Virus record (IMG/VR): IMGVR_UViG_3300045988_139374
Location: 160,001-224,000 of that record
From: a virus
DNA: 64,000 bases
Reading direction: 5' to 3' (one strand)
This document shows positions 3,172-17,600 of this stretch, in pieces (the stretch's first letter is position 1; every line of letters starts with the position of its first letter). Position numbers and translations under genes: made by a program. Below the pieces are notes generated by a model. That model had not been told where the DNA came from. It saw only the letters and a list, made by a program, of their open reading frames with translations, and searched no databases.

Positions 3172-4431
3172 ATGGCTATAATTGATAAAATTAAGGTTGG
3201 TAGCACTACCTATGATGTGTCGCCTTCTGCTTCTGGTACTCTGAACACTACTGGCACTACTAAGTTTGCTTCTAGTGACGTTGCTCAGGGAAATGCAACT
3301 GGCTGGACTAATGTAGATCAGATGACCACTGCTGATAACCATGCTACTCTGTTTACTAAGATCACTCAGATGGCAAAGAACGTCCGCTATCTGTACAATG
3401 TTCTTGGTACTGGCTTCTCCACTGGTTCTACTGTTAAGGGTCAGATTGATGGAAAAGCAGCAGCTAATCACTCTCACAAGGTTGCTCAACTGCCTACTTC
3501 TAGTACTCAAGTTAACTCCAATGACTATATTCCTACTTCTGCTCTGATCTATTCTATGAATCAGACTCTAACTTCGCTAAATGACGCTAGTAATAAACTT
3601 GGAGTCAGGATTTATAATACTAAATATGCAGTTGGAGGTATTCCTACCAAATCCCAATTTGCTGCAACTGACACTGTACAAAGCATTATTATTAAAATGC
3701 TAGGAGATATGGGTCAGAAACCCATTGACTCTTCTACACCTAATACAAGATATAAGTCTCAGAATCTTGGTACTTGGTCTAGTGTTAGTGATGTAGATAA
3801 TTTTCTTTATAGTTGTTGTCATGATACTGGTTATTATGGTGCTACTATTGGTAGTTATGTTACGATTAAAGATGGTGTATATAATAAAGAATGGATTATT
3901 GCTGGTTTTGATTGTGAAAAGAATCATAAAGCTTCCGATGGCAATACAAAGGATAATGGATATGGTATATGCTTAATACCTAAGAAGAGCTTAGGTAATT
4001 ATGTATGGGATTCTAATTCTATTATAAATGGATACAACGGATCTGAAATGCATAAGTCTACATTACCTGTAGTTGCGAATAATCTTAGAAAAGTATTAGG
4101 AAATCATCTTGTACAGCGTAATGTCCTTCTGAGTAATGCTGTAGATTCTAACTATTATGCTAAAGGCTATTTTTGGACTACTGCATATTGTACTCTTATG
4201 AGTACAGGACAAGTAACTGGTACATTTGCTTCTAATAGAAACAAGTATGATGATGGAGAAGCTAATTATAAACTTCCTTTGTTTAATTATGAAATATGGA
4301 GTTTTGATACCTGGGCCTGGTTGCGAGGGCTATTCGGCTACGGTGTCTATGGCCTTACCACTTCTGGTGGTTCTGGTTATGACATCTGTTACGTTAGTCA
4401 CGGTCTTCGCCCGCTCATTTATATTAGGTAA
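3172..4431 (+). CDS. DGR target: tail fibre / receptor-binding protein with C-terminal variable region
   Basis: 419-aa ORF. The N-terminus is paralogous to fibre 1395..2218 and includes NHSH. The C-terminus WAWLRGLFGYGVYGLTTSGGSGYDICYVSHGLRPLIYIR-stop resembles the CLec/FGE-type VR scaffold; the VR lies within the last ~115 nt of the ORF. Confidence 0.85.
   Translation: MAIIDKIKVGSTTYDVSPSASGTLNTTGTTKFASSDVAQGNATGWTNVDQMTTADNHATLFTKITQMAKNVRYLYNVLGTGFSTGSTVKGQIDGKAAANHSHKVAQLPTSSTQVNSNDYIPTSALIYSMNQTLTSLNDASNKLGVRIYNTKYAVGGIPTKSQFAATDTVQSIIIKMLGDMGQKPIDSSTPNTRYKSQNLGTWSSVSDVDNFLYSCCHDTGYYGATIGSYVTIKDGVYNKEWIIAGFDCEKNHKASDGNTKDNGYGICLIPKKSLGNYVWDSNSIINGYNGSEMHKSTLPVVANNLRKVLGNHLVQRNVLLSNAVDSNYYAKGYFWTTAYCTLMSTGQVTGTFASNRNKYDDGEANYKLPLFNYEIWSFDTWAWLRGLFGYGVYGLTTSGGSGYDICYVSHGLRPLIYIR
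4317..4417 (+). repeat. DGR variable region (VR)
   Basis: 101 nt align to TR with 12 mismatches, every one opposite a TR adenine. Confidence 0.9.
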
Positions 4432-4437
4432 TGGAAC

Positions 4438-4456
4438 TAGCCACCTTGTGTGGCTA
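4438..4456 (+). promoter_or_regulatory. hairpin just 3' of VR (candidate DGR homing-enhancing hairpin/cruciform)
   Basis: TAGCCAC 4438-4444 / loop CTTGT / GTGGCTA 4450-4456, about 20 nt after the VR end and 7 nt after the stop codon. Confidence 0.5.
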
Positions 4457-4537
4457 AGTGGAATTACCGTAATATAAATGAAAGGTGAAGGCTTAACGAG
4501 TAAATATATTATTAATATAAAATAAGAGGTGGTTTGT

Positions 4538-5347
4538 GTGTCTGTCGTTAAGGGTAAAAGAAATCAATCTGATGTTGAATATTTTGATTATGCATATAAA
4601 GTTGTGGAGCATATAACTAAATTTCTTTTATCTGATCTTGGGATTAAGAAAACTTATAGAGACTTAAAAGTTTTTACTTATAAATCTCATATGGAGGAAG
4701 CTGATAAAGAAGAATTTGAGCATTTAGTAAATAAGTATGATTTGGAATTGGAAACAGATTTTCCTAATTGGCTAATGTGCTATTATAGAGAAACATTATT
4801 AACAATCATGAGAGATCTAATCAATAATATATCTGCAGCTTATACACTATATCCAAATTCTGTTTATGAATTTAATATCAAGAAACAGTATATTTCTGAT
4901 TCTATAGCTAATTGTTTCGATTTAAAACATCAACTCCAATTAGTAATTAGAATATTTCCAGCAAATATGAAGAAATATATTCCATTTGTAAAAGAAATCG
5001 ATAAGGAAATAGAGCTTCTTAAACAGTGGCGAAAGAACTTTACAGGAATTTCTAAGAAGCATTGCTACAATCAAGATGAAATCGCTAAGAGAGATGCTAT
5101 TAAGAGAGTAAATAAGATTGAAGCAAAGAATGAGCGTAAACTTCAAGTGAACAATAATTTCCTTGTAGAATATATGAAAGCAGTTTACACTCAACAAGTG
5201 CTTATGGATAATCTATATCATACAACCTTCTATTATAATCAGCAAAATCAGTATTGCTCCGAACTGCCTATTGCAGCTTGTACATTCTTTGATCAAAATG
5301 GATATTATATTGGAGATTCTGCTCATGATTTTGTTACAACTAACTAA
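4538..5347 (+). CDS. candidate DGR accessory protein (Avd-like by position), otherwise hypothetical
   Basis: ORF lies between the target gene and TR. In-frame GTG at 4538 follows AAGAGGTGG. Predicted helical and basic. At ~270 aa it is longer than a typical Avd. Confidence 0.5.
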   Translation: MSVVKGKRNQSDVEYFDYAYKVVEHITKFLLSDLGIKKTYRDLKVFTYKSHMEEADKEEFEHLVNKYDLELETDFPNWLMCYYRETLLTIMRDLINNISAAYTLYPNSVYEFNIKKQYISDSIANCFDLKHQLQLVIRIFPANMKKYIPFVKEIDKEIELLKQWRKNFTGISKKHCYNQDEIAKRDAIKRVNKIEAKNERKLQVNNNFLVEYMKAVYTQQVLMDNLYHTTFYYNQQNQYCSELPIAACTFFDQNGYYIGDSAHDFVTTN

Positions 5348-5378
5348 ATAGTAAGGTGACTCTCTATAAATAATCTCG

Positions 5379-5497
5379 CTGGTTGCGAGGGCTATACGGC
5401 AACAACAACCTCAACAACAACAATGTCTATGGCCTTACCACTTCTGGTGGTTCTGATTATAACAACTGTAACAATAGTAACGGTCTTCGCCCGATCA
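5379..5497 (+). repeat. DGR template region (TR)
   Basis: 119 nt, AAC/AAT-rich (WLRGLYGNNNLNNNNVYGLTTSGGSDYNNCNNSNGLRPIN in the VR frame), intergenic between avd-like gene and RT. Confidence 0.9.
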
Positions 5498-5651
5498 ACA
5501 GCATCTTGGCAATTTAAGGATCGAAAGATCTGGCCAGGATGTCTGTATGAGGAGGGAGTTCCCTTTCCGAAAGGAAGAAACAATAAAGCTGGCTACGGTT
5601 CTGGCATTACGATGCTGAATCTATTGGGCTGGTATATTTTTTTTTATTTTT

Positions 5652-6938
5652 ATGATTATTGATTTTAGTAATGAAGATTGGGGCGAAAATCCCTGTGAAT
5701 ATACTGAAGGAAAATTAGATTCTATTGCAGATCCAGATAAATTATATCAATCTTATAGAAAAGCTTCTAAACCAATTTATTATAAAGCATCTACTCAAAG
5801 ATATGGATTAAATCTATTATCTAATATTGCTATTGCAAATGAAGCATTAAATAATGGATCTTATAAAATTGGAGATCCATATGAATTTATTCTCACAGAA
5901 CGCGGTAGAATTAGATATGTAAAAGCATTATATATGTTTGATCAAGTAGTGCAGAGATCTTTCAATGATAATGTATTAAATCCTGCTATTGCTAATAAGA
6001 TGATTTATGATAATGGAGCTTGTGTAAAAGGAAAAGGTGTTGCTTTTACAAGAATGAGATTTAAGCAGCATCTACAACAAGCATATTATCAATTTGGATA
6101 TGATGGTTATATAATGATCATCGATTTTTCTAAATATTTTGATAATATTCTTCATCAAGAAGCTTTAAAACAATTCGAACCTCTATTAACGCCAGAAGAA
6201 TACAATTTTCTTAAAATTACTTTTGATACATTCAAACTAGATGTATCTTATATGTCAGATGCAGAATATCTAGAAGCTAGAGATTCTCTGTTTAATCTTC
6301 TAGAATATTCTATGATGGCAAAAGAAAATTTCAAAGGATTAAAGCTTCTTGAAAAGTCTGTTGGAATTGGTAATCAAACTTCTCAAGGAACTGGAATGTA
6401 CTATCCTCATGAAATAGACAATTATGTGACTATAGTAAGAGGATATGGATTATATGGAAGGCATATGGATGATACATATGTATTTGCTAAAACTAAAGAA
6501 GAATTACAACAACTTCTTGAAGAAATAAAAGAATTGTGTAAGAATCTTGGAATTCATATTAATCTTAAGAAAACTAGAATAGAACCCATCAAGAATACAA
6601 TTTCATATCTTAAAATAAATTATAAAATTATTGAAACTGGAAGAGTATTTGAATTAGTCCCAAATAAAGTATTTAAAAGAGAAAAAGATAAATTAACAAA
6701 ATATAGGGATCTTTGCATTCAATATAAAATGACTGCTATTACAGTTCTTCAATGTTATCTTAGTTGGAGAGGTGTATATAATAAATTTGATTCTAAAAGA
6801 AAAATATATGCACTGGATTGCTATTTTAAAGATCTTTATTGTTTAGGATTTAGAGATACAAATCTATATGATTTGTTGCATTTCTATATGCGTGTAGAAA
6901 GAGAGAAATTAAATAACTATCCAGTCATGAAATATTAA
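5652..6938 (+). CDS. DGR reverse transcriptase
   Basis: IIDFSKYFDNI (motif A-like), VGIGNQTSQ (the DGR-typical [I/L]GNxxSQ), YGRHMDDTYVF (YxDD box). Confidence 0.9.
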   Translation: MIIDFSNEDWGENPCEYTEGKLDSIADPDKLYQSYRKASKPIYYKASTQRYGLNLLSNIAIANEALNNGSYKIGDPYEFILTERGRIRYVKALYMFDQVVQRSFNDNVLNPAIANKMIYDNGACVKGKGVAFTRMRFKQHLQQAYYQFGYDGYIMIIDFSKYFDNILHQEALKQFEPLLTPEEYNFLKITFDTFKLDVSYMSDAEYLEARDSLFNLLEYSMMAKENFKGLKLLEKSVGIGNQTSQGTGMYYPHEIDNYVTIVRGYGLYGRHMDDTYVFAKTKEELQQLLEEIKELCKNLGIHINLKKTRIEPIKNTISYLKINYKIIETGRVFELVPNKVFKREKDKLTKYRDLCIQYKMTAITVLQCYLSWRGVYNKFDSKRKIYALDCYFKDLYCLGFRDTNLYDLLHFYMRVEREKLNNYPVMKY

Positions 6939-7026: not shown

Positions 7027-7617
7027 ATGTCCGACAAACGTACTGATTACATTTCTAAAGATCAAATGTATATGGGAATTGCTCAACTTGCTGCAATGAG
7101 ATCTAAAGATCCTAATTCTCAAGTTGGTGCAGTTTTTGTATCTTCTAATGATCGTATCCTTAGCATTGGTTATAATGGATTTCCTAATGGAATTTCTGAT
7201 GATGAATTCCCTTGGGCAAGAGAAGCTGAATCTGAAGAGAATACTAAATATCCTTATGTAGTTCATGCAGAAGAAAATGCTATTCTTAACTTCCGTGGAG
7301 ACCTTTCTGCTTTTAAAGGCTCTACTCTTTACGTAACAATGTTTCCTTGCCATAACTGTACGAAGGCTCTTATTCAAGTTGGCGTTAAGCATATTTATTA
7401 TGGTATTAATAAATATCCTGATACGGCAGATTTTAGAGAAGCTACTAGAATGCTTGATGCTGTTGGAATCAAGTATGAACAACTGGTCAATGATATGATT
7501 ATTATATCAACAAAAGATTTTATTGATGCTTTTAATAATCTATCAGATAAATCAAGAGATTTAACAGATCTAACAGGGTTTGTTGATAGGATGAATTTTC
7601 CTGAGTATTATAAATAA
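7027..7617 (+). CDS. dCMP deaminase (cytidine/deoxycytidylate deaminase fold)
   Basis: VVHAEENAI and MFPCHNCTKALIQVG (HAE...PCxxC zinc motifs); AAGGAGG RBS. Confidence 0.8.
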   Translation: MSDKRTDYISKDQMYMGIAQLAAMRSKDPNSQVGAVFVSSNDRILSIGYNGFPNGISDDEFPWAREAESEENTKYPYVVHAEENAILNFRGDLSAFKGSTLYVTMFPCHNCTKALIQVGVKHIYYGINKYPDTADFREATRMLDAVGIKYEQLVNDMIIISTKDFIDAFNNLSDKSRDLTDLTGFVDRMNFPEYYK

Positions 7618-7747: not shown

Positions 7748-9463
7748 ATGGAAAACAATAATGTCAATCTATCTAAATATGGATATCAAGAGCAAAGATA
7801 TCCTATTGATACTACTGGCTATAAGCAACTTCATGACTATAACATCGAGTATCAGATGGCACATCAGAAGGAGTTTAACTTCCTTCAGCCTCTTCCTAAT
7901 GATCTTATGTCTACTACTAAGACATATCCTCATTCTGATGAGTTTGAGTTTTCTGGACAGCTTGAAATCATTAATTATGATAAAGCTTGTGAAGAAGACC
8001 TTAGGGAAGGAAATGGTTTTATTGTAGAACCAGCTGGTAGAAATATCAAGAAAGATCTTCATGCTGAGGATGGTATTTTCTCTCCTAAGTTTGGACAAAC
8101 CTTGGCTGATACTAATCCTTTTATGGATCGTTATCGTTGTCGGTGTAAAGAAGGAGGGCTTCGTGGCCGTAATAATGCCGGTTTGCGTTGTCCAAAATGT
8201 GGTCATCTATGTTCTTATGTAGATGATAATTTTAATTATCGTGGATGGATTAAACTTTCTGAGCCTTATAAGTTTATTCATCCTACCTTCTACACTTATA
8301 TCGATTCTATCCTTGGTAAAGGTATCTATATCCAGGGTAATAAGCGTACTAAGCTTGAAAATATTCTTGACGTTACTGATACTCAATTGGTTCTTAATTC
8401 TATTAAGATTGATGATCCCAAACTTAAAGATGAACCGTTCTTTGGTATTGGAATGATTGCTTTTGTCGAACGCTTTGATGAGATCATGGATTATTATATC
8501 AAGAAGCGCCCTAATAAGCGTAATTATTATGATGCCATTTATCAGTCTCGTGATTCTGTATTTTCATCTTCGCTTCCTGTCATCACTACATTGCTTCGTC
8601 CGTTCGATATAGATGGCAACAACATGACCTATGAGCCAACGAATGCAATGTATACAATGATTAATAAACTTGCTACTTCTATTAATAAGAATAAAACTGC
8701 TATCCAGAGAGAACCTAAAATCAAGAACCAGCAGCTTTATAATCTTCAAAAGAAGTTTATGGAAATTTATGCTGAACAAATTTCTATTCTAGCAGGTAAG
8801 AAGGGAGATTTTAGATGTCTACTTGGTGGACGTTATAACTTCTCTTCTCGTTGTGTTATTGTTCAAAATCCTAATCTTCGTATTGATGAGATTACTATGC
8901 CTGCTGTAGCATTGACTGTTATGCTTGAGCAAAGAATTAAAAATATTCTCTGCCGTATGCATGGTATGACTCCTACACAAGCACATGATATTTGGTATAA
9001 AGCTACTATTGAGCCTAATAAACGTATAAATACCATTATTCAATCCATCATCGATGATTTTAAACACAAAGGCATGCGTGGGCTTCCGGTTATCATTGGA
9101 CGAAATCCTACACTTGCTTATGGCTCTATTCTGCAAATGTTCTGTGTTGGGATTACTGATTCTTATACCTTAGCAGTTCCTCTACAGATCTTAAAATTCT
9201 TGGCTGCTGACTTCGACGGCGACGTTATATATTGCTTGGTTCCGATGAATCAGACTTTTATTCGTCTTGCTTGGGAAAAATTCAATCCTAGGAATGCTAT
9301 GTATATTTCTAGAGATAATGGATATTTCAATCCCAATGCATTGATGCAAAGAGATACACTTATTAATGCTAATACTTTAGCAAGATTAGGAAGGGAGAAT
9401 TACACACAAGAAGATCTTAATAAGTTCGATAGAATTCAGAAAGCTATTAAAGCAGCTGGTTAA
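7748..9463 (+). CDS. multisubunit RNA polymerase beta-prime-like subunit, N-terminal fragment
   Basis: CRCKEGGLRGRNNAGLRCPKCGH (CxC...CxxC zinc ribbon); GRNPTLAYGSILQM (compare NRAPTLHRLGIQAF); LAADFDGDVIY (catalytic DFDGD at 9209-9223); only 571 aa, so a split beta-prime. Confidence 0.8.
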   Translation: MENNNVNLSKYGYQEQRYPIDTTGYKQLHDYNIEYQMAHQKEFNFLQPLPNDLMSTTKTYPHSDEFEFSGQLEIINYDKACEEDLREGNGFIVEPAGRNIKKDLHAEDGIFSPKFGQTLADTNPFMDRYRCRCKEGGLRGRNNAGLRCPKCGHLCSYVDDNFNYRGWIKLSEPYKFIHPTFYTYIDSILGKGIYIQGNKRTKLENILDVTDTQLVLNSIKIDDPKLKDEPFFGIGMIAFVERFDEIMDYYIKKRPNKRNYYDAIYQSRDSVFSSSLPVITTLLRPFDIDGNNMTYEPTNAMYTMINKLATSINKNKTAIQREPKIKNQQLYNLQKKFMEIYAEQISILAGKKGDFRCLLGGRYNFSSRCVIVQNPNLRIDEITMPAVALTVMLEQRIKNILCRMHGMTPTQAHDIWYKATIEPNKRINTIIQSIIDDFKHKGMRGLPVIIGRNPTLAYGSILQMFCVGITDSYTLAVPLQILKFLAADFDGDVIYCLVPMNQTFIRLAWEKFNPRNAMYISRDNGYFNPNALMQRDTLINANTLARLGRENYTQEDLNKFDRIQKAIKAAG

Positions 9464-9641: not shown

Positions 9642-9875
9642 TTAGATATAAAATATTCTTACATTATATTTTACTATAGAAATAAGTTGTTTATTTAGAT
9701 CGATATTAAATGTAACGATTACATAATTTAAATAATCAGGGACGTAATATATGGCAACATATGGAAATCCAGAGATTGAATTTATGTCTGCACATATTGC
9801 AGATATTACAATTATATTGTTAAATGATTTCATTTCTGAAATATACATATCTCTTTGCTTAATAGAAGCGTCATT
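9642..9875 (-). other. start-less cassette C4 (77 codons), last of the minus-strand array
   Basis: Signal at 9858-9873 (rev); NDASIKQRDMYISEM...VRIFYI-stop. Confidence 0.55.
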
Positions 9876-10168
9876 TACATATCAAAATACCAACATTTGC
9901 ATGTAATAGGATTTTTACCATCGGTATATATTTCATTATCTGCAAGCCTTCCGACTTTTGTCATATAAACTTCACAGTTAGTAACTTTAAATGTACCATC
10001 ATCAAAATATCCACTGGCAGCTATTACAGGAAATGTATAATATCCAGCATTTCCTTTTGGATATAGTATTGGCATTGCTTGAATTATATATGCTTTAGAT
10101 AAGTACCCGCATGATGCATATTCACTATATGGAACTTTACAAGTATTAGTTTTAAGAGAAGCGTCATT
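9875..10168 (-). other. start-less cassette C5 (97 codons)
   Basis: Signal at 10151-10166 (rev, TGACGCTTCTCTTAAA); NDASLKTNTCKV...KCWYFDM-stop. Confidence 0.55.
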
Positions 10169-10496
10169 GTGCTTTACCTTTAATATAAAATATATTAATG
10201 ATGACTTCTGCATTTGATAAAGATGTTTTGTTAAAAGGCATAATTTTTTCATGCAATGTATCAATACCTAGTATATATAATTTTCTGCCAGTTGTCCAAA
10301 TACCAGTATTTGGATCTTGTGTTGAATCGATACTTGTAGATAGGAAAGTTAAATACATTCTAACAGTATTACTACAATATGCATAGTGAGCTATAATATC
10401 ATCATCAGTAACAGAAATATCTGTATCAAGAATAAAATAAGAAATATCATTCTTTACTCTACCTTGCTTCATTTTAATTTTAGTAGAAGCGTCATT
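10164..10496 (-). other. start-less cassette C6 (110 codons)
   Basis: Signal at 10479-10494 (rev); NDASTKIKMKQGRV...INIFYIKGKAQ; the stop is the TGA inside the next signal. Confidence 0.55.
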
Positions 10497-10506
10497 TATA
10501 TTGGTA

Positions 10507-10767
10507 TTATAGATTTTTTAAATAAAATACAATTAATCTTCTAATAGATGAATGCATTGTTAAAGTATTATTAGGGAATCCTCTTATATCTATATAATAA
10601 CATGAATCATCTTCATCATACCATATATCTACATATTCAGCTTGCTCAGTTTTACCTGTTATTTTAGATTCAATATAAAGTCCAACAATTGGAATTCCTA
10701 AATAAAAAGCTTGTTTACTACTTTTTGGAAGAGTTAATTCTATATTATATATAATAGAAGCGTCATT
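10507..10767 (-). other. start-less cassette C7 (86 codons)
   Basis: Signal at 10750-10765 (rev); NDASIIYNIELT...LIVFYLKNL-stop. Confidence 0.55.
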
Positions 10768-11065
10768 TACCAAAATAATAATATATTTTTATATTAAATG
10801 CTGTATTTACTTTTATTAATTTATAATCATTAATTTCAAACAATTGAATTATAGAATAAAAACTACCCTTTTCATATATTCCTTGATACATTGCTGGAAA
10901 TATATACTTAGGAGAATAATTGATAGGAAATAATGTTTGATTATACGTGGTACTATACACAGCAAATATTATATATGCTGATAGCCCAGATGGCACATCA
11001 TATCTTTCTTTATATATTCCATTCTCATCAGTTGTTACATCTTTACTCTTAATAGAAGCGTCATT
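10763..11065 (-). other. start-less cassette C8 (100 codons)
   Basis: Signal at 11048-11063 (rev); NDASIKSKDVTT...IKIYYYFGK; the stop is the TGA inside the next signal. Confidence 0.55.
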
Positions 11066-11384
11066 CACTAATATAATAGTATATTTTAATACCAATTTTA
11101 TCTGATGGCTTTATAAGCTGTCCATTGTCATTTATTTTATATACTTGAATTACAATATATCTATTAACAGCATCTGCAATTTTTCCATATGAGCCAGAAT
11201 ATATTGCAGGAATTATATATATTGGAACATTCATTTGATTTACTAGATTTCCAGTCATTGTGGATGTATTACTATATATCGCTAAAATATTTTTATGAGA
11301 ACTAATTCCAAATACGCCTAATGCAATTTTATATTCTCCACTGCTATCAGTTTCCACTATTTCATGTTTAATAGAAGCGTCAGA
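11061..11384 (-). other. start-less cassette C9 (107 codons)
   Basis: Signal at 11367-11382 (rev); SDASIKHEIVET...IKIYYYISE; the stop is the TGA inside the next signal. Confidence 0.55.
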
Positions 11385-11388
11385 CTTG

Positions 11389-11673
11389 TTAAATATAATA
11401 TATAATAATTGAAACATTACGTCCATTACGAGATGCCGTGCTGCCATTAATATCTGATGTATATACAAGAATAGTTCTAATTACCCATTCAACATCTGTA
11501 GTTTTAAATATTTGAATTAATGGAATAGATGAACTGGTATTTACAGCTGGATTTATGTATGCATTTATTAAAATTCCATTAGTAAATTTATATAAGTAAT
11601 CATTGTCATTTAAACCATTTGAATATTTTCTAGGATATACGGTATCAGTTTTAATCTTAATAGAAGCGTCAAA
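11389..11673 (-). other. start-less cassette C10 (94 codons), first of the minus-strand array
   Basis: Signal at 11656-11671 (rev); FDASIKIKTDTVYPRK...VSIIIYYI-stop; no ATG/GTG/TTG in frame, so it is absent from the ORF track. Confidence 0.55.
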
Positions 11674-11814: not shown

Positions 11815-12393
11815 TCTGACGCTACTAAGAATTTTGGAAATGGAAGTCTAATTAAATCTATTACTTATGAAGGATCCTATACTACAAGTACTGTTTATTC
11901 ATATCAAATCGATGATTGGCTAAAAGTAAATTGTACTTCTACTAATCCTATTAGAACAAAAATATCTAGATTATATGATATTGTATTTTTCTTCGATACA
12001 GATGTTGAGGAGTTAGCTATAAATATGCTTAGACATTTATTTGCTGTTGGAGCTGACTATAAGTATCTTGGTGGATTTATACTCATGAAGAAAATATCAA
12101 ATGAATGGACACCTGGTAGATCTCTTTCTCAGGCTAGCTTTGATTATTTTTTAGGCCCATATATAGAATATGGATTGGCACCTAAACAATTTGTTAAATA
12201 TCGAGTAATTAGAGAGAATAATGCATATTATATAGATAGATATGTTGATACATCAGAGAAAAACTACAAAAATGATAATATTTCCTATCAGATATTATAT
12301 AGGAATACAGAACCGCATAAATATTTAATATATGGAATAGATTTTGAAGATCATGTATCTGATGTTGTGAATAGTAAGCCAGTAGATCAGTAA
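11815..12393 (+). other. start-less large cassette C11 (192 codons)
   Basis: Variant signal TGACGCTACTAAGAAT at 11817-11832; SDATKNFGNGSLIKSITYEG... is homologous to C17; TAA directly upstream in frame. Confidence 0.55.
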
Positions 12394-12404
12394 ATATAGT
12401 ATAC

Positions 12405-12679
12405 AATGACACTTCTAAAATAAAAACAATATACATGGATTAGGTAATGTAAAAACAACAACTAGGTATATAGATAATCAATATGGTAGTTATTATGAAA
12501 AATGCTATTATCTAGCTTCTGGAATTATGGTTGGGTATATGCTTGATCAAAGTACAATAGGATTATTATCTACATTCTTAACACAAGTAGGTAAATATAT
12601 AATGGCATTTAGATATGATAACACTGCAAAATCAATGAATACGATAGAGTGCACTATATCTATGCTTTATTATATTTAA
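12405..12679 (+). pseudogene. degenerate, frameshifted cassette C11b
   Basis: Variant signal TGACACTTCT at 12407; the head frame stops after 12 codons; another frame carries ...ECTISMLYYI-stop; length 275 nt is not a multiple of 3. Confidence 0.45.
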
Positions 12680-12730
12680 ACTTTAATTCCCCCTAAACAA
12701 TATATTACAAAATATTGTAGGAGGAATATT

Positions 12731-12898
12731 ATGGACAAATCTGATTTTTATAAAATTCTTTGTTCATCTACACCTGAAGAAATTAATCACTTTATTTCTT
12801 CTAAAGGCAAGATTAAAAATGTAAATGCTATTACATTTTTAGATGATCAAACTTTACAAGATCTACATTCTAATACGGATTCGAATCAATCTAATTAA
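12731..12898 (+). CDS. small hypothetical protein (55 aa)
   Basis: TAGGAGGA RBS 6 nt before ATG; MDKSDFYKILCSSTPEEINHF...; below the ORF-track size cut-off. Confidence 0.5.
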   Translation: MDKSDFYKILCSSTPEEINHFISSKGKIKNVNAITFLDDQTLQDLHSNTDSNQSN

Positions 12899-12919
12899 GT
12901 TATTAGCTCTTTTATATTT

Positions 12920-13001
12920 GCAGGAATGGTGGAATGGCAGACACGCTAGACTTAGGATCTAGTTCTTCGGAGTGAGGGTTCAAGTCCCTTTTCCTGCACC
13001 A
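12920..13001 (+). tRNA. tRNA-Leu (anticodon TAG), class II with long variable arm, CCA encoded
   Basis: Acceptor GCAGGAA/TTCCTGC; anticodon stem CTAGA/TCTAG with loop CTTAGGA; T-arm GAGGG-TTCAAGT-CCCTT; variable hairpin TTC-TTCG-GAG. Confidence 0.85.
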
Positions 13002-13033
13002 TGTAGAATTATCTCCCCTAATTCTACTCATAA

Positions 13034-13110
13034 GGGCTATTAGCTTAGTTGGTCAGAGCTTCTGGCTCATAACCGGATGGTCGTAGGTTCGAGTCCTACA
13101 TGGCCCACCA
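13034..13110 (+). tRNA. tRNA with CAT anticodon (elongator Met or Ile2), CCA encoded
   Basis: Acceptor GGGCTAT/ATGGCCC; anticodon loop CTCATAA; T-arm GTAGG-TTCGAGT-CCTAC. Confidence 0.85.
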
Positions 13111-14040
13111 TTAGAGATTAAGATACCACACACGCTAACGCTATTTTAATCTCTTTTCTTTCTTGTGTATAGAGGGTGGAAGAAACACAAGATAGAGATT
13201 CAAGTTCATTTCTTTCTTTCTTCTTGAATCTCGAAGCGAGGTTCGATTCATTAGTTCCGCAACCTAATGATGGTGCAGTACGATTCTGCAGGGGATAAAT
13301 AGATTTGGCCACTCCTTTCAATTTATTCCTAACGCTTAGATCCATTTGATCTAGCCTGCGTGCCTATTTGATCGGTTACGTAAAGATTCCTGACGGGAAC
13401 TACGTTTAATTTGAAATACAATAGCCGCGTATAAAAATTGTATTTATTATTTCTTTTCTTTCTGATCAATAGAATTAAATTATAAATGCAATGGAGGATT
13501 AGATGGCCCAAATAATGACTACTGGGAGAATGTAGTAAGTCTCGAAAGTATCTACCGAGACGGGAGAATATAATGTGGCTCATATAACTATTCCTTCTGT
13601 AGGCTAGTTATTATTGCCACATTATGAATGGACATAGATACTCTTGTAAATTCTAAGGAGGCTAAGTTATACTTGTTACTACTGATCATAGTGGGTATAA
13701 CTTTATTAATGGTGGCCGCAGATGTAAAGAATTTACTGGATCTAATGTAAATCATCTAGCATTAGATTAAGAAAATAATTATGTATTTATATTGTGCGAT
13801 ATAAATATCTTAATTAAGATGAGCTGTGGGTATGAGATTGGATTATTGACCCTCTATACTACCATCTAAAGCATCCTTTTGGTAGTGAAGTTAGATGCCT
13901 TTTTCTGGTATTGGTTTTCGAAGGAAGAATAGATGTGCTCGGGCAGAACGAGCGGAATAACCTATACCCTCCTAACTAAGATTGTGGTGGACATTTATCA
14001 AGTTCGAGCCTTGAATCTTGGACAATAAGAATGATTCTAT
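13111..14040 (+). ncRNA. candidate large structured non-coding RNA (class unknown)
   Basis: ~0.93 kb without an RBS-led ORF. Locally GC-richer (28/60 G+C in 13241-13300). Several 8-10 bp helices, e.g. 13113-13121/13146-13154, 13195-13204/13223-13232, 13414-13422/13437-13445, 13570-13579/13616-13625. Strand assumed from the tRNAs. Confidence 0.35.
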
Positions 14041-14069
14041 TTGAGAAAAAGAAAGAGAGATGACCGATC

Positions 14070-14573
14070 ATGACAAGTGCATATGATATCATTAAAGATG
14101 TCAAAAGTAATGTCACCCAGTGCTCTTCATCTAAAAAGGATGAGATTACTGTTATGCAGGCTATGATGAATGATACTAACTTTTCAGTTGATGTTTATTC
14201 TAAGGGTGGCAAGGTTGATGAGTACTATCCTTCTCGTGAGTTGAGAAAGGTAGTAACTAACGTAGTAGCTTCTACTACTCATATTCCTGTTAAGGAAGCT
14301 ACTGAACTTGTTAATGCTTATGAATTCACTAGAGTAGATGCGGCTGCTATGGTGAATATGTCTAAGGAATTTGTTAATACTTATCTTCAGACTGGTAGAA
14401 AACTTCCTCTTGGAGGCCGTAAGAATTCTGATATTGAACTCATGTGGAAGAACATTGAAGATCGTACTACAGAAATTCCTATTAAATCTGAAACTGGTGA
14501 ACGTCTGAATACGTTCATTCCCGCTCATGGTGGCATTAAGGCTATCAATCCTTGCCCTGAGTGGTTGAAATAA
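14070..14573 (+). CDS. hypothetical protein upstream of the giant tape-measure-like gene
   Basis: 167-aa ORF with purine-rich leader; hairpin GGGGAAGGCC.../...GGTCTTCCCC follows. Confidence 0.6.
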   Translation: MTSAYDIIKDVKSNVTQCSSSKKDEITVMQAMMNDTNFSVDVYSKGGKVDEYYPSRELRKVVTNVVASTTHIPVKEATELVNAYEFTRVDAAAMVNMSKEFVNTYLQTGRKLPLGGRKNSDIELMWKNIEDRTTEIPIKSETGERLNTFIPAHGGIKAINPCPEWLK

Positions 14574-14672
14574 ATTTTTAAGATTCTGGGGAAGGCCATT
14601 TAGGTCTTCCCCGCTTCTTTTGTATAAACTCAACTTTAGTATAATACTTTTATATGTAAGGAGGTAATCAAG

Positions 14673-17600
14673 ATGGCTAAGTCTAAAAACAAAGACAACA
14701 ATAAAACTGGCCCTATTGCATATGCCAAAAATGTAGTAAAGTCTGCTAAGTATATTGCTGTTGAGACTGCCAAGGGTGTTAATCCTACACTTACTAGCTA
14801 TATTGCTGATAATGCTTCTGCTGCAAAGGATATGTACAATGCAGCGAAGGATTATAAAGGAACTATTCGTAAGAAGCTAGAAGACTCTATTGGATCTAAA
14901 AATACCGATCAACTTGGACAAATTAAGAAAGATATTTTTAGTGATCTAAAATCTGGTAAATTCTACAATCCTGAACGTGAAGCAGAGTCCATGAACAAAC
15001 TAGCAGAATCTTGGGGAATGACTTCCTTTGATTTTGATATGGATGATGATTTCGATCTAGATTCTGATAATGATGACGATACTGATAGCTCTACTACATC
15101 TTCTAAATCTAATGATATAGATGTAGTTACTGGAGCTATCCATGGTCTTGGAAATCAGATTTCTTATCACCAGCTTATTACTGGTGAGGGAATTGCTGGT
15201 AAGATCGGTGGAGCTAATATCAAGAATACTAGAGCAATGATGACAAATAATAATAGACTCGCTGGAATGTTGAATAATTCCTTGTCTGTTATTAATACTT
15301 CTATTCTTGATCTTCATAAGGATCTAGTAGAACCTCTCAATGGACACATTCAGAATTCTACTAGTTTTTATCAAACAGCTACATCTGAGCTGGCTAAGCA
15401 AACTAGTTATTTGGAGACTATCACTAAACTACTAACAGATAGATTTGCTCCCGTTGCCACTAGTAAAGGTAGTGGAATTAAAGAGACTCCTTGGGAAGCA
15501 GTTATGGGTGGAGATTTGCCGAATCTAGGTAACTGGATTAAGCATGCCAAGAATAAATCAATGGAAGATTCTGGAATGGACTCCCTTGCTGCTATTATGA
15601 ATCCTGAGATGCTGGAGACTTTACTAGGTGCTGGTATGCATTCTCCTATTGCATTGGCAATTACTATGGCTCTTACATCTAAGATTCAAAATGGCCCTAC
15701 CGGTAAAGCTCTAGATAGAACTGTCAATATTTTTAGAGATGGTATGATGAAGGTCGCTGGACAGATTCATAAAGCATCTAAGAATGATGGTATTCTAGGT
15801 ACCATTGCTAGTTTCTTTGACATTACTCCTCATTTTAATCCTAAGATGAATTTCGGTAATTATAATAAGGGACGAGTAGATTGGACTGGTAAGGACTCTA
15901 AAGCACTGAGAGATGTTATTCCTACTTATCTAGCAAATATTGAAGCTTTGCTATCTGGCAGAGAAGCTAAAGTATTTAACTATGAAACTGGTAGATTTAC
16001 ATCTGCAAGTAATGGCTTTAATGAATTTAAGAAATCTAGACAGGCTAATATCGGTAATGCTTCTAAGGGTATGAAGGAAGAACTTCTTCAAGAATTTATC
16101 GATGAAGATAAAGAGAAGTATAAGAATGATGAAAACCATATTGCTTATACTAGAGAATCTAGAGCTGTTAGAAATCTATCTGATGATTATGATAAGATGA
16201 TGTCTCTTATTACTCTAAATCATATTGATCCTTCTAAATTTGATTCTGCTCAGAGTATGCTTACTCTTCTTCGTCAAAGAGGATGGATTAATGATGATCC
16301 TACTAAGGGATTCATTTCTAACAAGAATGCTCGTGCTATTGCTAGACTTATTTTCAAGAAAAAGTCTGGTGTTGGTAAAATGAATAATGCTATCTATTCT
16401 GGACAGATTGCAAATGCTAGATTTGTTGATACTATCAATGAAACTAATCCTATGTTTGCTGCAGTGGCAAATGGATCTGGTATGACTAATACTCACAAAC
16501 TAAAAAGCAATCTAAATAAGAATAGTGCAGATGCTGTTACTATGGCACTTGATGATCATGGTAATAATATTTTCTTCTATCTGCAAGATTATTATAAGCA
16601 AATTAGAGTTATGGTAGACTCTATGTCTGCATCTAACTTTAATTTGTCTACTATCAAGAATGAAATTATTAGTAGATTTAATGGAGGATTTGGTAATACA
16701 GAAAACTCCACTGGAACTTCTGGTAATAGACGCCAGCCTAAGAAGAGAAAAGAATCTTCTAGAGCAAGTAGAGCAGCTGCTGCAGATGCTGGAGCTGGCG
16801 GCTCAGACTCTGGATTTAGATCTCTATATAATTTCAATTACGACGTTCCTAACAATATAGCTCCTGAGATTATTACTCCTGAAATGGCCGAAGCTTCTGC
16901 TGGAGCTTCGGAGAGAGAAGCTGCAATTGAAGATCCTGAAGGAAGAATGGTATATAATTCCTCTACTAAGCGATATGAAGCTCCTAAGGCTTCTTCTAGA
17001 GGATCTTTCCTAAAGTTTAAGGAAAATGCTAAAGATCATAGTATCCTATCTATCATCGTTGATAAATTCAATGATTTTATGGATAATACGCTCTTCGGTA
17101 ATGCGCCTGCTGCATTTAAGCAGAAGATTGACGAAGAAGGTGGTCTGTTCGGATACCTGCAATCTTTGCCCAATAAGATTGCTACAGGTCTACAGGATCT
17201 TCCTGATAAAATTGCAAATAAAACTAGTGAATTATGGAAGAAGTTCCAGGAATCTGATTTTGGCAAGAAATTCATGGAATCTTCTAAGAATATTATTTCT
17301 AGTTTCTTTAAAGATACAGAACAATATGCTGAAAGAAAAGCTCAGGGTACTTTAAAGTATCTATTTAAGAATACTAGATTTGATCTCGATAAGAAAGAAA
17401 AAGAAAACGAAGAGGCAATTAATGGACCTATTGCTCTATTACCTCAACATGCTGAATCTTTAATTCCTGAAGATGCTAATCCTGAAGGATCTTATAGAGG
17501 TGGATTAGTTAATAAATCTGGAATGGTTTCTGTTTCTAAAGGTGAATTGATTGTTCCTGCAAAATATAATCCTCTTTATAATGGTGGATTGTCTGATAAA

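Follow-up and report, generated by a model that had tools for sequence, protein, structure and literature searches.

An RNA gene occupies positions 13111-14040 on the + strand of a 64,000-nt stretch of phage DNA (IMG/VR record IMGVR_UViG_3300045988_139374, positions 160,001 to 224,000; this whole stretch is called the window below, and coordinates are counted from its first letter). The region follows two tRNA genes directly and is no empty spacer. The initial annotation had proposed a large structured non-coding RNA 3' of the tRNAs, a proposal that is now backed both by covariation among 15 related sequences and by homology of the 5' domain to RAGATH-36, a candidate structured RNA (Rfam RF03104, gathering cut-off 70 bits). 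On the basis of current results, the + strand probably encodes a non-coding RNA that is read with the tRNAs and is made up of leader hairpins, a divergent RAGATH-36-type domain and a clade-specific tail; it would be trimmed by tRNA enzymes and act in trans as a stable molecule.

Non-coding status, folding and covariation

The gap between the end of tRNA-Met (13110) and the ATG at 14070 is 959 nt long. It had been described as free of open reading frames (ORFs), which agrees with our analysis: 13111-14069 holds short ORFs only, none of which is kept in the 15 related sequences on either strand, and this includes the antisense ORFs already suspected to be spurious. A hydrophobic 40-aa ORF (13628-13750) was considered as a gene and rejected, as it is not conserved. 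With regard to composition, the region is indeed richer in G+C than the window (35.5% vs 32.8%), but 13241-13300 has 26/60 and not 28/60 as first counted, and 'much GC-richer' was an overstatement because only the first ~300 nt stand out (40-44%).

The five long helices first listed are all perfect Watson-Crick inverted repeats (9, 8, 10, 9 and 10 bp). The predicted fold of the + strand has an energy of -248 kcal/mol, compared with -219 +/- 7 for dinucleotide shuffles (z = -4.0; 0/20 as good). The - strand reaches -214.6 kcal/mol (z = -5.2), so that the + strand fold is 33 kcal/mol lower.

Relatives of the region were gathered via the neighbouring 167-aa protein, and the alignment analyses were based on 15 related sequences. 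Sixteen distinct relative sequences fall into two subclades (A, which includes the window, and B) plus mosaics (L003 and L054; L-numbers denote collected loci). Identity between the subclades is 99.5% in the tRNAs and 86-96% in the flanking genes vs 67% in the RNA region, in which invariant blocks are interleaved with hard-to-align stretches. Recombination and divergence appear to be concentrated in this region; the two mosaics are window-like to about the Pb hairpin (listed below) and, beyond it, resemble L002, a divergent relative of the window from the other subclade.

When the subclades were folded separately, their hairpins were equally spaced from the invariant blocks and their loops differed little in size (11/11, 36/37, 73/72 and 124/121 nt). 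Hand registration of the window with L002 gave 20 helices with 138 pairs, 49 of which were changed on both sides, 9 on one side and 2 to non-pairs. In an unguided MAFFT alignment of the 15 sequences, 91.2% of cells were paired vs 37-46% with slid partners, 25 pairs had changes on both sides vs 1-11, and the covariation score was 0.21 vs 0.02-0.09 (0/500 shuffles as high); the unpaired cells were mostly register shifts of subclade B. The helices contain 18 G.U pairs vs 1 A.C, which argues that the RNA is encoded on the + strand. Among the helices first listed, those at 13113/13154, 13161/13192, 13195/13232 and 13570/13625 also form in the divergent subclade, where compensatory changes maintain them. 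The helix at 13414/13445 has a 7-bp counterpart at the same place in subclade B (AAUUGAA/UUUAAUU), but its sequence differs, and the match was made by alignment inspection only. Compensation could also be observed inside subclade A, where C-G is replaced by U-A in the hpL1 stem (13543/13557).

A divergent RAGATH-36-type domain

The front of the region comprises the following features, in which changed pairs refer to the two subclades:

13113-13125/13142-13154, +: leader hairpin H1, then a U/C-rich run (fold; 5 pairs changed on both sides)
13161-13167/13186-13192, +: leader hairpin H2 (fold; 1 pair changed on both sides)
13195-13204/13223-13232, +: leader hairpin H3 with loop UUCAUUUCUUUCUUUCUU (fold; 4 pairs changed on both sides)
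13231-13405, +: RAGATH-36-type 5' domain (Rfam and R1 covariance models)
13234-13249, +: 5' strand AAGCGAGGUUCGAUUC with T-loop-like UUCGAUU
13248-13254/13264-13270, +: helix Pa, then UGG
13274-13278/13286-13290, +: helix Pb with T-loop-like loop UACGAUU (13279-13285), then G
13292-13300/13321-13329, +: helix Pc
13330-13339, +: invariant strand UAACGCUUAG
13339-13342/13370-13373, +: helix Pd (GAUC/GAUC in the window vs UACG/CGUA in L002)
13378-13382/13401-13405 and 13387-13391/13395-13399, +: extended helix Pe

Every pair of H1, H2 and H3 forms in both subclades. The covariance-model search suggested as a check in the initial annotation was run with Rfam, and its sole meaningful match, a weak one, was RAGATH-36 at 13271-13404 on the + strand (29.0 bits, E 0.0015). 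L002 matches the same model independently (29.6 bits, E 6e-4). The conserved letters (UGG, hairpin loop UACGAUU, GGG, hairpin, CCUAACGCUUAG) are in exact register with the model, and the whole conserved core, that is, UGG, the UACGAUU-loop hairpin, G, a hairpin and CUAACGCUUAG, is present at 13271-13339. We also built our own covariance model (R1) from 22 loci outside the window's clade. It matched 13231-13343 end to end with 73.2 bits (E 2.8e-14), the runner-up in the 64 kb having an E value of 3.8. As in the family, a tRNA lies nearby: tRNA-Met ends 124 nt upstream of the domain on the same strand. Judged by its sequence, 13231-13405 is a true but divergent RAGATH-36 member by all tests except the Rfam cut-off, and its predicted form is a multi-helix junction with two T-loop-like motifs (UUCGAUU and UACGAUU) and the invariant UAACGCUUAG.

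The RAGATH-36 family in phage tRNA arrays

No paper found in a literature search names RAGATH-36. A search pattern built from the conserved letters of the RAGATH-36 match (GTACGATTC, 15-45 nt, CTAACGCTTAG) retrieved 25 IMG/VR contigs and 8 genome-bin contigs, mostly from Clostridia. A further motif outside this pattern, AGCGAGGUUC, was found with at most 1 mismatch at a fixed upstream place in nearly all of the 29 distinct sequences. Because this un-searched motif recurs at a fixed place, the collected loci are homologues and not chance matches. Most of the 29 sequences have the longer 16-mer AAGCGAGGUUCGAUUC, which was likewise not part of the search pattern and is common to the window and the family at the matching position. 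Across the other loci, the Rfam scores run continuously (136, 113, 96, 73, 61 and 48 bits).

The Rfam model spans only ~130 nt of an RNA of 280-440 nt (L006-L029 and L066-L073; full copies are found, for example, at L012 6956-7260 and L016 3849-4138). Outside the model, most sufficiently long copies have a 5' strand AAGCGAGGUUCGAU with a hairpin, and a covarying 3' domain that is predicted to be pseudoknotted. Other family members, too, commonly have a hairpin immediately upstream of AAGCGAGG. From these sequence comparisons we conclude that RAGATH-36 is the front part of a larger 280-440-nt pseudoknotted RNA.

In the front part, the family helices Pa, Pb and Pc are paired in 95.5% of cases vs 38-49% with slid partners, and 13/16 pairs covary with both sides changed. 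Both strands of the P1 pairing AAGCG:CGCUU are invariant, and one locus breaks the pairing. In the canonical 3' domain, a hairpin loop GAAAUGCUG, pseudoknotted to GUGCAUCC, is followed by Pg, a strand AAAGUGCAUCCUU, Ph (capped by GUUGGAG and GGUNAAA) and the Pg closing strand. These helices were parsed by hand, as the MAFFT alignment was too poorly registered for a model. Pf, Pg and Ph pair in 12/12 parsed sequences, with 11, 8 and 11 different arm sequences, respectively, and in 11/12 the loop AUGC is complementary to GCAU in the invariant strand; both pseudoknot sides are changed in L006 and L009 (GUGC:GCAC). In 22 of 27 scanned canonical copies, the invariant GUGCAYCC strand lies 195-367 nt past the start; of the remaining five, three are truncated at a sequence edge and two, both from L007, lack it. 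Two GUGCAUCC copies with flanking motifs occur in L018 (~2375-2500), which suggests duplication of the 3' domain.

The family RNA is always on the tRNA strand and, in most loci, is located within a phage tRNA array or next to a tRNA gene. Many copies have a tRNA ending 100-125 nt upstream, and in four separate lineages (L006, L016, L023 and L025; three times with tRNA-Gln) a tRNA begins 2-3 nt past the closing helix. Because the tRNA starts so close to this helix, RNase P would be expected to form the 3' end of the RNA. At several other loci, the RNA ends 15-25 nt ahead of a ribosome-binding site. The genes downstream of family members are mutually unrelated, and many members have a tRNA next instead.

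Some of these loci are dense in non-coding RNAs. RAGATH-4, RAGATH-16 and the pistol ribozyme occur alongside RAGATH-36 in L013, L025, L016, L012, L014 and L007, together with sub-threshold RAGATH-27 and near-threshold twister-P1. The tRNA array of L069 (4198-6761; a 213-kb contig of a Herbinix sp. metagenome-assembled genome) has two RAGATH-36-like copies and a full-length transfer-messenger RNA (tmRNA) gene (6222-6609, 93 bits). In L008, L024 and L026, an extra stretch of ~430 nt lies between the RAGATH-36-type RNA and the next tRNA (~440-880 nt from the RNA start). The three loci conserve this stretch well; Rfam gives no match to it at gathering cut-offs, and it may be an unannotated RNA.

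The clade-specific tail

In the window, a tail of ~600 nt with roughly 14 helices (13405-14040) stands where the canonical rear domain would be. Its features are as follows:

13414-13422/13437-13445, +: hairpin Hx, a perfect 9-bp helix enclosing conserved CGCGUAU..AUAAAAA, then a U/C-rich run
13461-13469, +: invariant block UCUGAUCAA (alignment)
13507-09/13562-64, +: module 1, CCC/GGG bracket around two hairpins
13518-22/13532-36, +: module 1, hp1 (ACUAC/GUAGU vs GGCAC/GUGUC in the other subclade)
13539-44/13556-61, +: module 1, hpL1 with invariant loop AAAGUAUCUAC (13545-55)
13570-79/13616-25, +: module 1, long hairpin, extendable to 13570-90/13605-25 (3 pairs changed on both sides)
13547-54 with 13635-42, +: candidate pseudoknot PK1, 8 bp (arms invariant in 15/15)
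13647-54/13728-35, +: module 2, outer stem (UAAAUUCU/AGAAUUUA vs AUUGUUCU/AGAACAAU; 4 pairs changed on both sides)
13664-72/13695-13703, +: module 2, inner hairpin (6 pairs changed on both sides)
13744-47/13760-63, +: module 2, hpL3 with invariant loop UAAAUCAUCUAG (13748-59; 2 pairs changed on both sides)
13787-92/13799-13804, +: module 2, hp4 core (3 pairs changed on both sides)
13752-57 with 13817-22, +: candidate pseudoknot PK3, 6 bp (conserved block)
13828-36/13961-69, +: module 3, long-range closing helix (GGG../..CCC vs AGG../..UCU)
within 13828-13969, +: module 3, invariant UUGACCYUCUA
13859-64/13880-85, +: module 3, hpL2 with loop UCUAAAGCAUCCUUU (13865-79; 5/6 pairs changed on both sides)
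13871-75 with 13894-98, +: candidate pseudoknot PK2, 5 bp (partner GAUGC becomes GAUGU, a G.U pair, in 4 sequences)
13937-41/13949-53, +: module 3, hp5 (5/5 pairs changed on both sides; cleanly deleted in L054)
13976-14022, +: tRNA-like minihelix (acceptor and T-arm stems invariant in 15 sequences)
13976-82/14015-21, +: 7-bp acceptor-like stem of the minihelix (CUAAGAU/AUCUUGG)
13998-14002/14010-14, +: 5-bp T-arm of the minihelix (UCAAG/CUUGA) with the 7-nt loop UUCGAGC

Three hairpin loops of the tail, each 11-15 nt long, are invariant and mutually similar (core AAA-K-Y-AUC-Y), and each is complementary to an otherwise unexplained invariant downstream block. Across the three copies the paired positions change in step (G-C/U-A/G-C, then U-A/C-G/C-G), which suggests that the three candidate pseudoknots form. 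The hpL2 loop UCUAAAGCAUCCUUU resembles the invariant AAAGUGCAUCCUU strand of the family, and because of this likeness we conjecture that the modules may have arisen by copying and remodelling of the lost 3' domain. At the end of the tail, the minihelix has A14022 in the discriminator position, lacks D and anticodon arms, and was called neither by ARAGORN nor by the Rfam tRNA model, even at E<=10. The loop of H2 (13167-77) and module 3 (13849-59) share an 11-bp complementarity in subclade A, of which ~5 bp are left in subclade B.

Three copies of the pyrimidine motif UUUCUUU(U)CUUUCU lie in the RNA (13150-13164, 13209-13222 and 13449-13464). The motif was considered as a genome-wide signal and rejected, since the rest of the window shows no recurrence of it. 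Its complement is the invariant purine-rich stretch 14046-14058, just upstream of the ATG at 14070; this is low-complexity sequence.

Genomic setting

The window comes from a phage, as it encodes virion structural proteins, an RNA polymerase beta-like subunit and a 3432-aa protein. Near-identical contigs originate from human-gut metagenomes. The IMG/VR contig 3300045988_121810 (190 kb) is 98% identical to the window across the RNA region. The features that flank the RNA are the following:

12920-13001, +: tRNA-Leu(UAG) (ARAGORN; Rfam tRNA, 58.5 bits)
13034-13110, +: tRNA-Met(CAU) (ARAGORN; Rfam tRNA, 66.9 bits)
from 14045, +: invariant purine-rich ribosome-binding region (alignment)
14070-14573, +: 167-aa ORF, the next convincing gene (ORF list)
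14587-14613 plus T run, +: strong intrinsic-terminator-like site (terminator scan)

Both tRNAs and the RNA region are on one strand and probably share a common transcript. The terminator-like site at 14587-14613 is the sole strong one within 12300-14800, and promoter- or terminator-like signals inside the RNA region are not above chance. The 167-aa protein has no PHROG or Pfam match, and tblastn against 50,697 GenBank phages gave zero matches; blastn of the RNA region against the same phages gave none either. The tRNA-plus-RNA block is an accessory insertion, because both the tRNAs and the RNA are missing from phages in which the 167-aa gene is present at 38-65% identity.

Upstream of the tRNAs, 3172-6938 is a diversity-generating retroelement. 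A 419-aa ORF (3172-4431) has the variable repeat (4344-4417) of this element at its 3' end, the template repeat (5424-5497) is 89% identical to the variable repeat with 8/8 mismatches at template adenines, and the reverse transcriptase (RVT_1) is encoded at 5652-6938; an ORF in between (4529-5347) may be an accessory gene. A link between the RNA region and this reverse transcriptase was considered and dropped, since the retroelement has its own template repeat. In addition, a deoxycytidine monophosphate (dCMP)/cytidine deaminase-family protein (7027-7617) adjoins the RNA polymerase beta-like subunit (7748-9463), and the very A+T-rich stretch 9875-11468 (- strand, 20-31% G+C) carries four or five paralogous small ORFs of 88-135 aa with the motifs NDASIK and IKIYYY.

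Proposed model and alternative explanations

In the model that we favour, a highly folded RNA of roughly 0.8-0.9 kb would be read rightward in one co-transcript with tRNA-Leu and tRNA-Met. RNase P (and RNase Z) would cut its 3' end at the minihelix, which may serve as a 3' processing signal because family members abut a real tRNA, and the RNA would accumulate as a stable trans-acting species. The paired T-loop motifs are a hint of tRNA mimicry or tRNA binding; they would provide a tRNA-elbow-like or elbow-binding surface tied to the tRNA/translation programme of the phage. A more far-reaching version, which we offer only tentatively, is a new class of ~0.9-kb 'ornate' phage RNA with an ancient RAGATH-36 double-T-loop core, a triple-pseudoknot scaffold and a tRNA-like end. 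Such an RNA might be an elbow mimic, an elbow binder or a self-assembling particle that manipulates host tRNA/translation or decoys tRNA-targeting defences in the course of infection, and RAGATH-36 would then be the tip of a much larger family of tRNA-array RNAs.

Several observations speak against the favoured model. The 5' domain stays below the curated Rfam threshold (29 vs 70 bits), and the loci of R1 were gathered with a 20-nt pattern partly derived from the window, which makes ~20 nt of the R1 match circular. The canonical 3' domain is missing: AAGUGCAUCCUU could not be found within 2 mismatches in 13111-14069, and the window offers only a related loop, UAAAGCAUCCUU, in a differing topology. 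In all searches made, relatives of the tail came from one phage clade only; in IMG/VR, an exact 16-mer and likewise a loop-plus-partner pattern returned the same three contigs and chance coding-sequence matches only, and an nhmmer profile of the tail gave zero matches against 51 other loci. Because the tail is confined to one clade, its covariation comes from essentially two or three lineages. The arms of the candidate pseudoknots are invariant within the clade, so that conservation and inter-copy differences are their only support, and matches to the loop motif by itself are not unusual in the window (7 vs 3.7 expected). Finally, a local GGAC:GUUC pairing competes with the T-arm of the minihelix.

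It is possible, if rather doubtful, that the region yields several small RNAs from one precursor instead of one large RNA: a RAGATH-36-like RNA of ~220-330 nt ending near the 13414-13445 hairpin with its U/C-rich run, then two or three clade-specific RNAs and the tRNA-like element. We keep this explanation in play because each module of the tail is self-closing, with one hairpin cleanly deleted in L054, and because a hairpin-plus-pyrimidine-run motif recurs three times (repeat family D1). Other family members are complete at 280-440 nt, and L008-type loci have a second, unrelated stretch of ~430 nt before the next tRNA. However, the 5' piece alone would be an incomplete member, as the window lacks the family 3' domain; separate units would also have to do without internal promoter- or terminator-like signals above chance. 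The complementarity between the H2 loop and module 3 further joins the two ends of the region, although it is much shorter in subclade B.

A cis-acting leader (5' untranslated region) that controls how the 167-aa gene and the late virion operon are translated, or their stability, is unlikely, because family members have mutually unrelated genes or tRNAs downstream and because the 167-aa gene occurs without the RNA in its 38-65%-identity carriers. Such a leader would agree with the lack of a terminator between the RNA and the ORF at 14070, with the invariant last 25 nt upstream of the ATG, and with the several loci at which the family RNA ends shortly before a ribosome-binding site. The conserved H3 loop UCUUUCUU is also complementary to AAGAAAGA at 14049-56, near the start codon, but this is low-complexity purine/pyrimidine sequence, and 0.9 kb with about 20 helices far exceeds known leaders.

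That the region is a decayed tRNA array, made of remnants without a function of their own, is very improbable. The degenerate array considered in the initial annotation is right only as far as one tRNA-like acceptor/T-arm minihelix (13976-14022) and the T-loop-like motifs (13241-49 and 13279-85) are concerned. There are also short similarities to the neighbouring tRNAs (repeat families D4-D6). Pseudogenes would not keep about 20 helices compensatorily over 33% divergence, the 5' domain is common to dozens of unrelated phages, and tRNA models find nothing in the region even at E<=10.

A known large RNA class or ribozyme is very improbable as well. GOLLD and ROOL RNAs are large (0.6-0.9 kb), have many helices and pseudoknots, are encoded by phages or prophages and often lie beside tRNA islands, and GOLLD env-38 is downstream of a Met-tRNA (PMC12286853, PMC5737381). 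The window RNA resembles them in size, number of helices, phage origin and tRNA-Met proximity, and other RAGATH-36 loci bear twister and pistol ribozymes. In contrast, its conserved motifs differ, and Rfam returned only the two tRNAs from the window at gathering cut-offs and only tRNAs and the weak RAGATH-36 match at E<=10 (window, short sub-regions and L002). Neither GOLLD/ROOL, which the initial annotation had held to be a reasonable hypothesis, nor a group I intron remnant, tmRNA or RNase P RNA was found, and ARAGORN gave no tmRNA. Group II introns and self-cleaving ribozymes, hepatitis delta virus (HDV)-like ones included, were also without a match in the window and L002.

An element that acts as DNA, for instance an origin of replication or a site of packaging or recombination, would explain the dense inverted repeats, the well-folding - strand and the divergence and recombination seen in the L003 and L054 mosaics, yet it is just as implausible, given that G.U is tolerated and A.C is not, that the + strand folds better, and that the 5' domain has its homologues in an RNA family always found on the tRNA strand.

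Relation to known systems and significance

The single large RNA that we prefer shares with RAGATH-36 the conserved core, in which CUAACGCUUAG is followed by a variable hairpin and a terminal hairpin, as well as the unmodelled 5' strand AAGCGAGGUUCGAU and hairpin common to the 29 distinct family sequences, and the phage setting, with tRNA genes around or next to the RNA on its own strand. It differs in that its terminal hairpin is without a GNRA loop and in that the ~600-nt clade-specific structure stands in place of the 3' domain (GAAAUGCUG loop:GUGCAUCC, Pg and Ph).

Other systems offer partial parallels. RNAs C and D of phage T4 (species 1 and 2) are stable non-tRNA RNAs of ~120-140 nt in the T4 tRNA cluster, which are co-transcribed with the tRNAs and matured by tRNA-processing enzymes. 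Their setting is alike, whereas they are smaller than the window RNA and not known to be related to it in sequence. tRNA-like 3' processing modules are known from the tRNA-like domain of tmRNA and from RNAs of the MALAT1 mascRNA type. As in these, the element at 13976-14022 has an acceptor stem on a T-arm, placed so that an RNase P cut would set the 3' end of the upstream RNA; unlike them, it has no D/anticodon arm, CCA or G3:U70. Double T-loop modules dock the tRNA elbow in T-box stem I, the RNase P S-domain and the ribosomal L1 stalk. The window has two T-loop-like pentaloop motifs (U..GA) a few helices apart, a likeness at the sequence-motif level only.

Large, intricately folded RNAs of bacteria and phages are rare, and what they do has long been an open question. 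The locus described here adds a well-supported example from a human-gut phage contig of ~190 kb, with relatives of up to 259 kb, and the orphan Rfam motif RAGATH-36 is shown to be the front of a longer, pseudoknotted RNA that resides in phage tRNA arrays. The family RNA appears to borrow tRNA-processing signals for its own maturation. As a companion of the tRNAs, this RNA is tied to the question of why phages carry tRNA islands.

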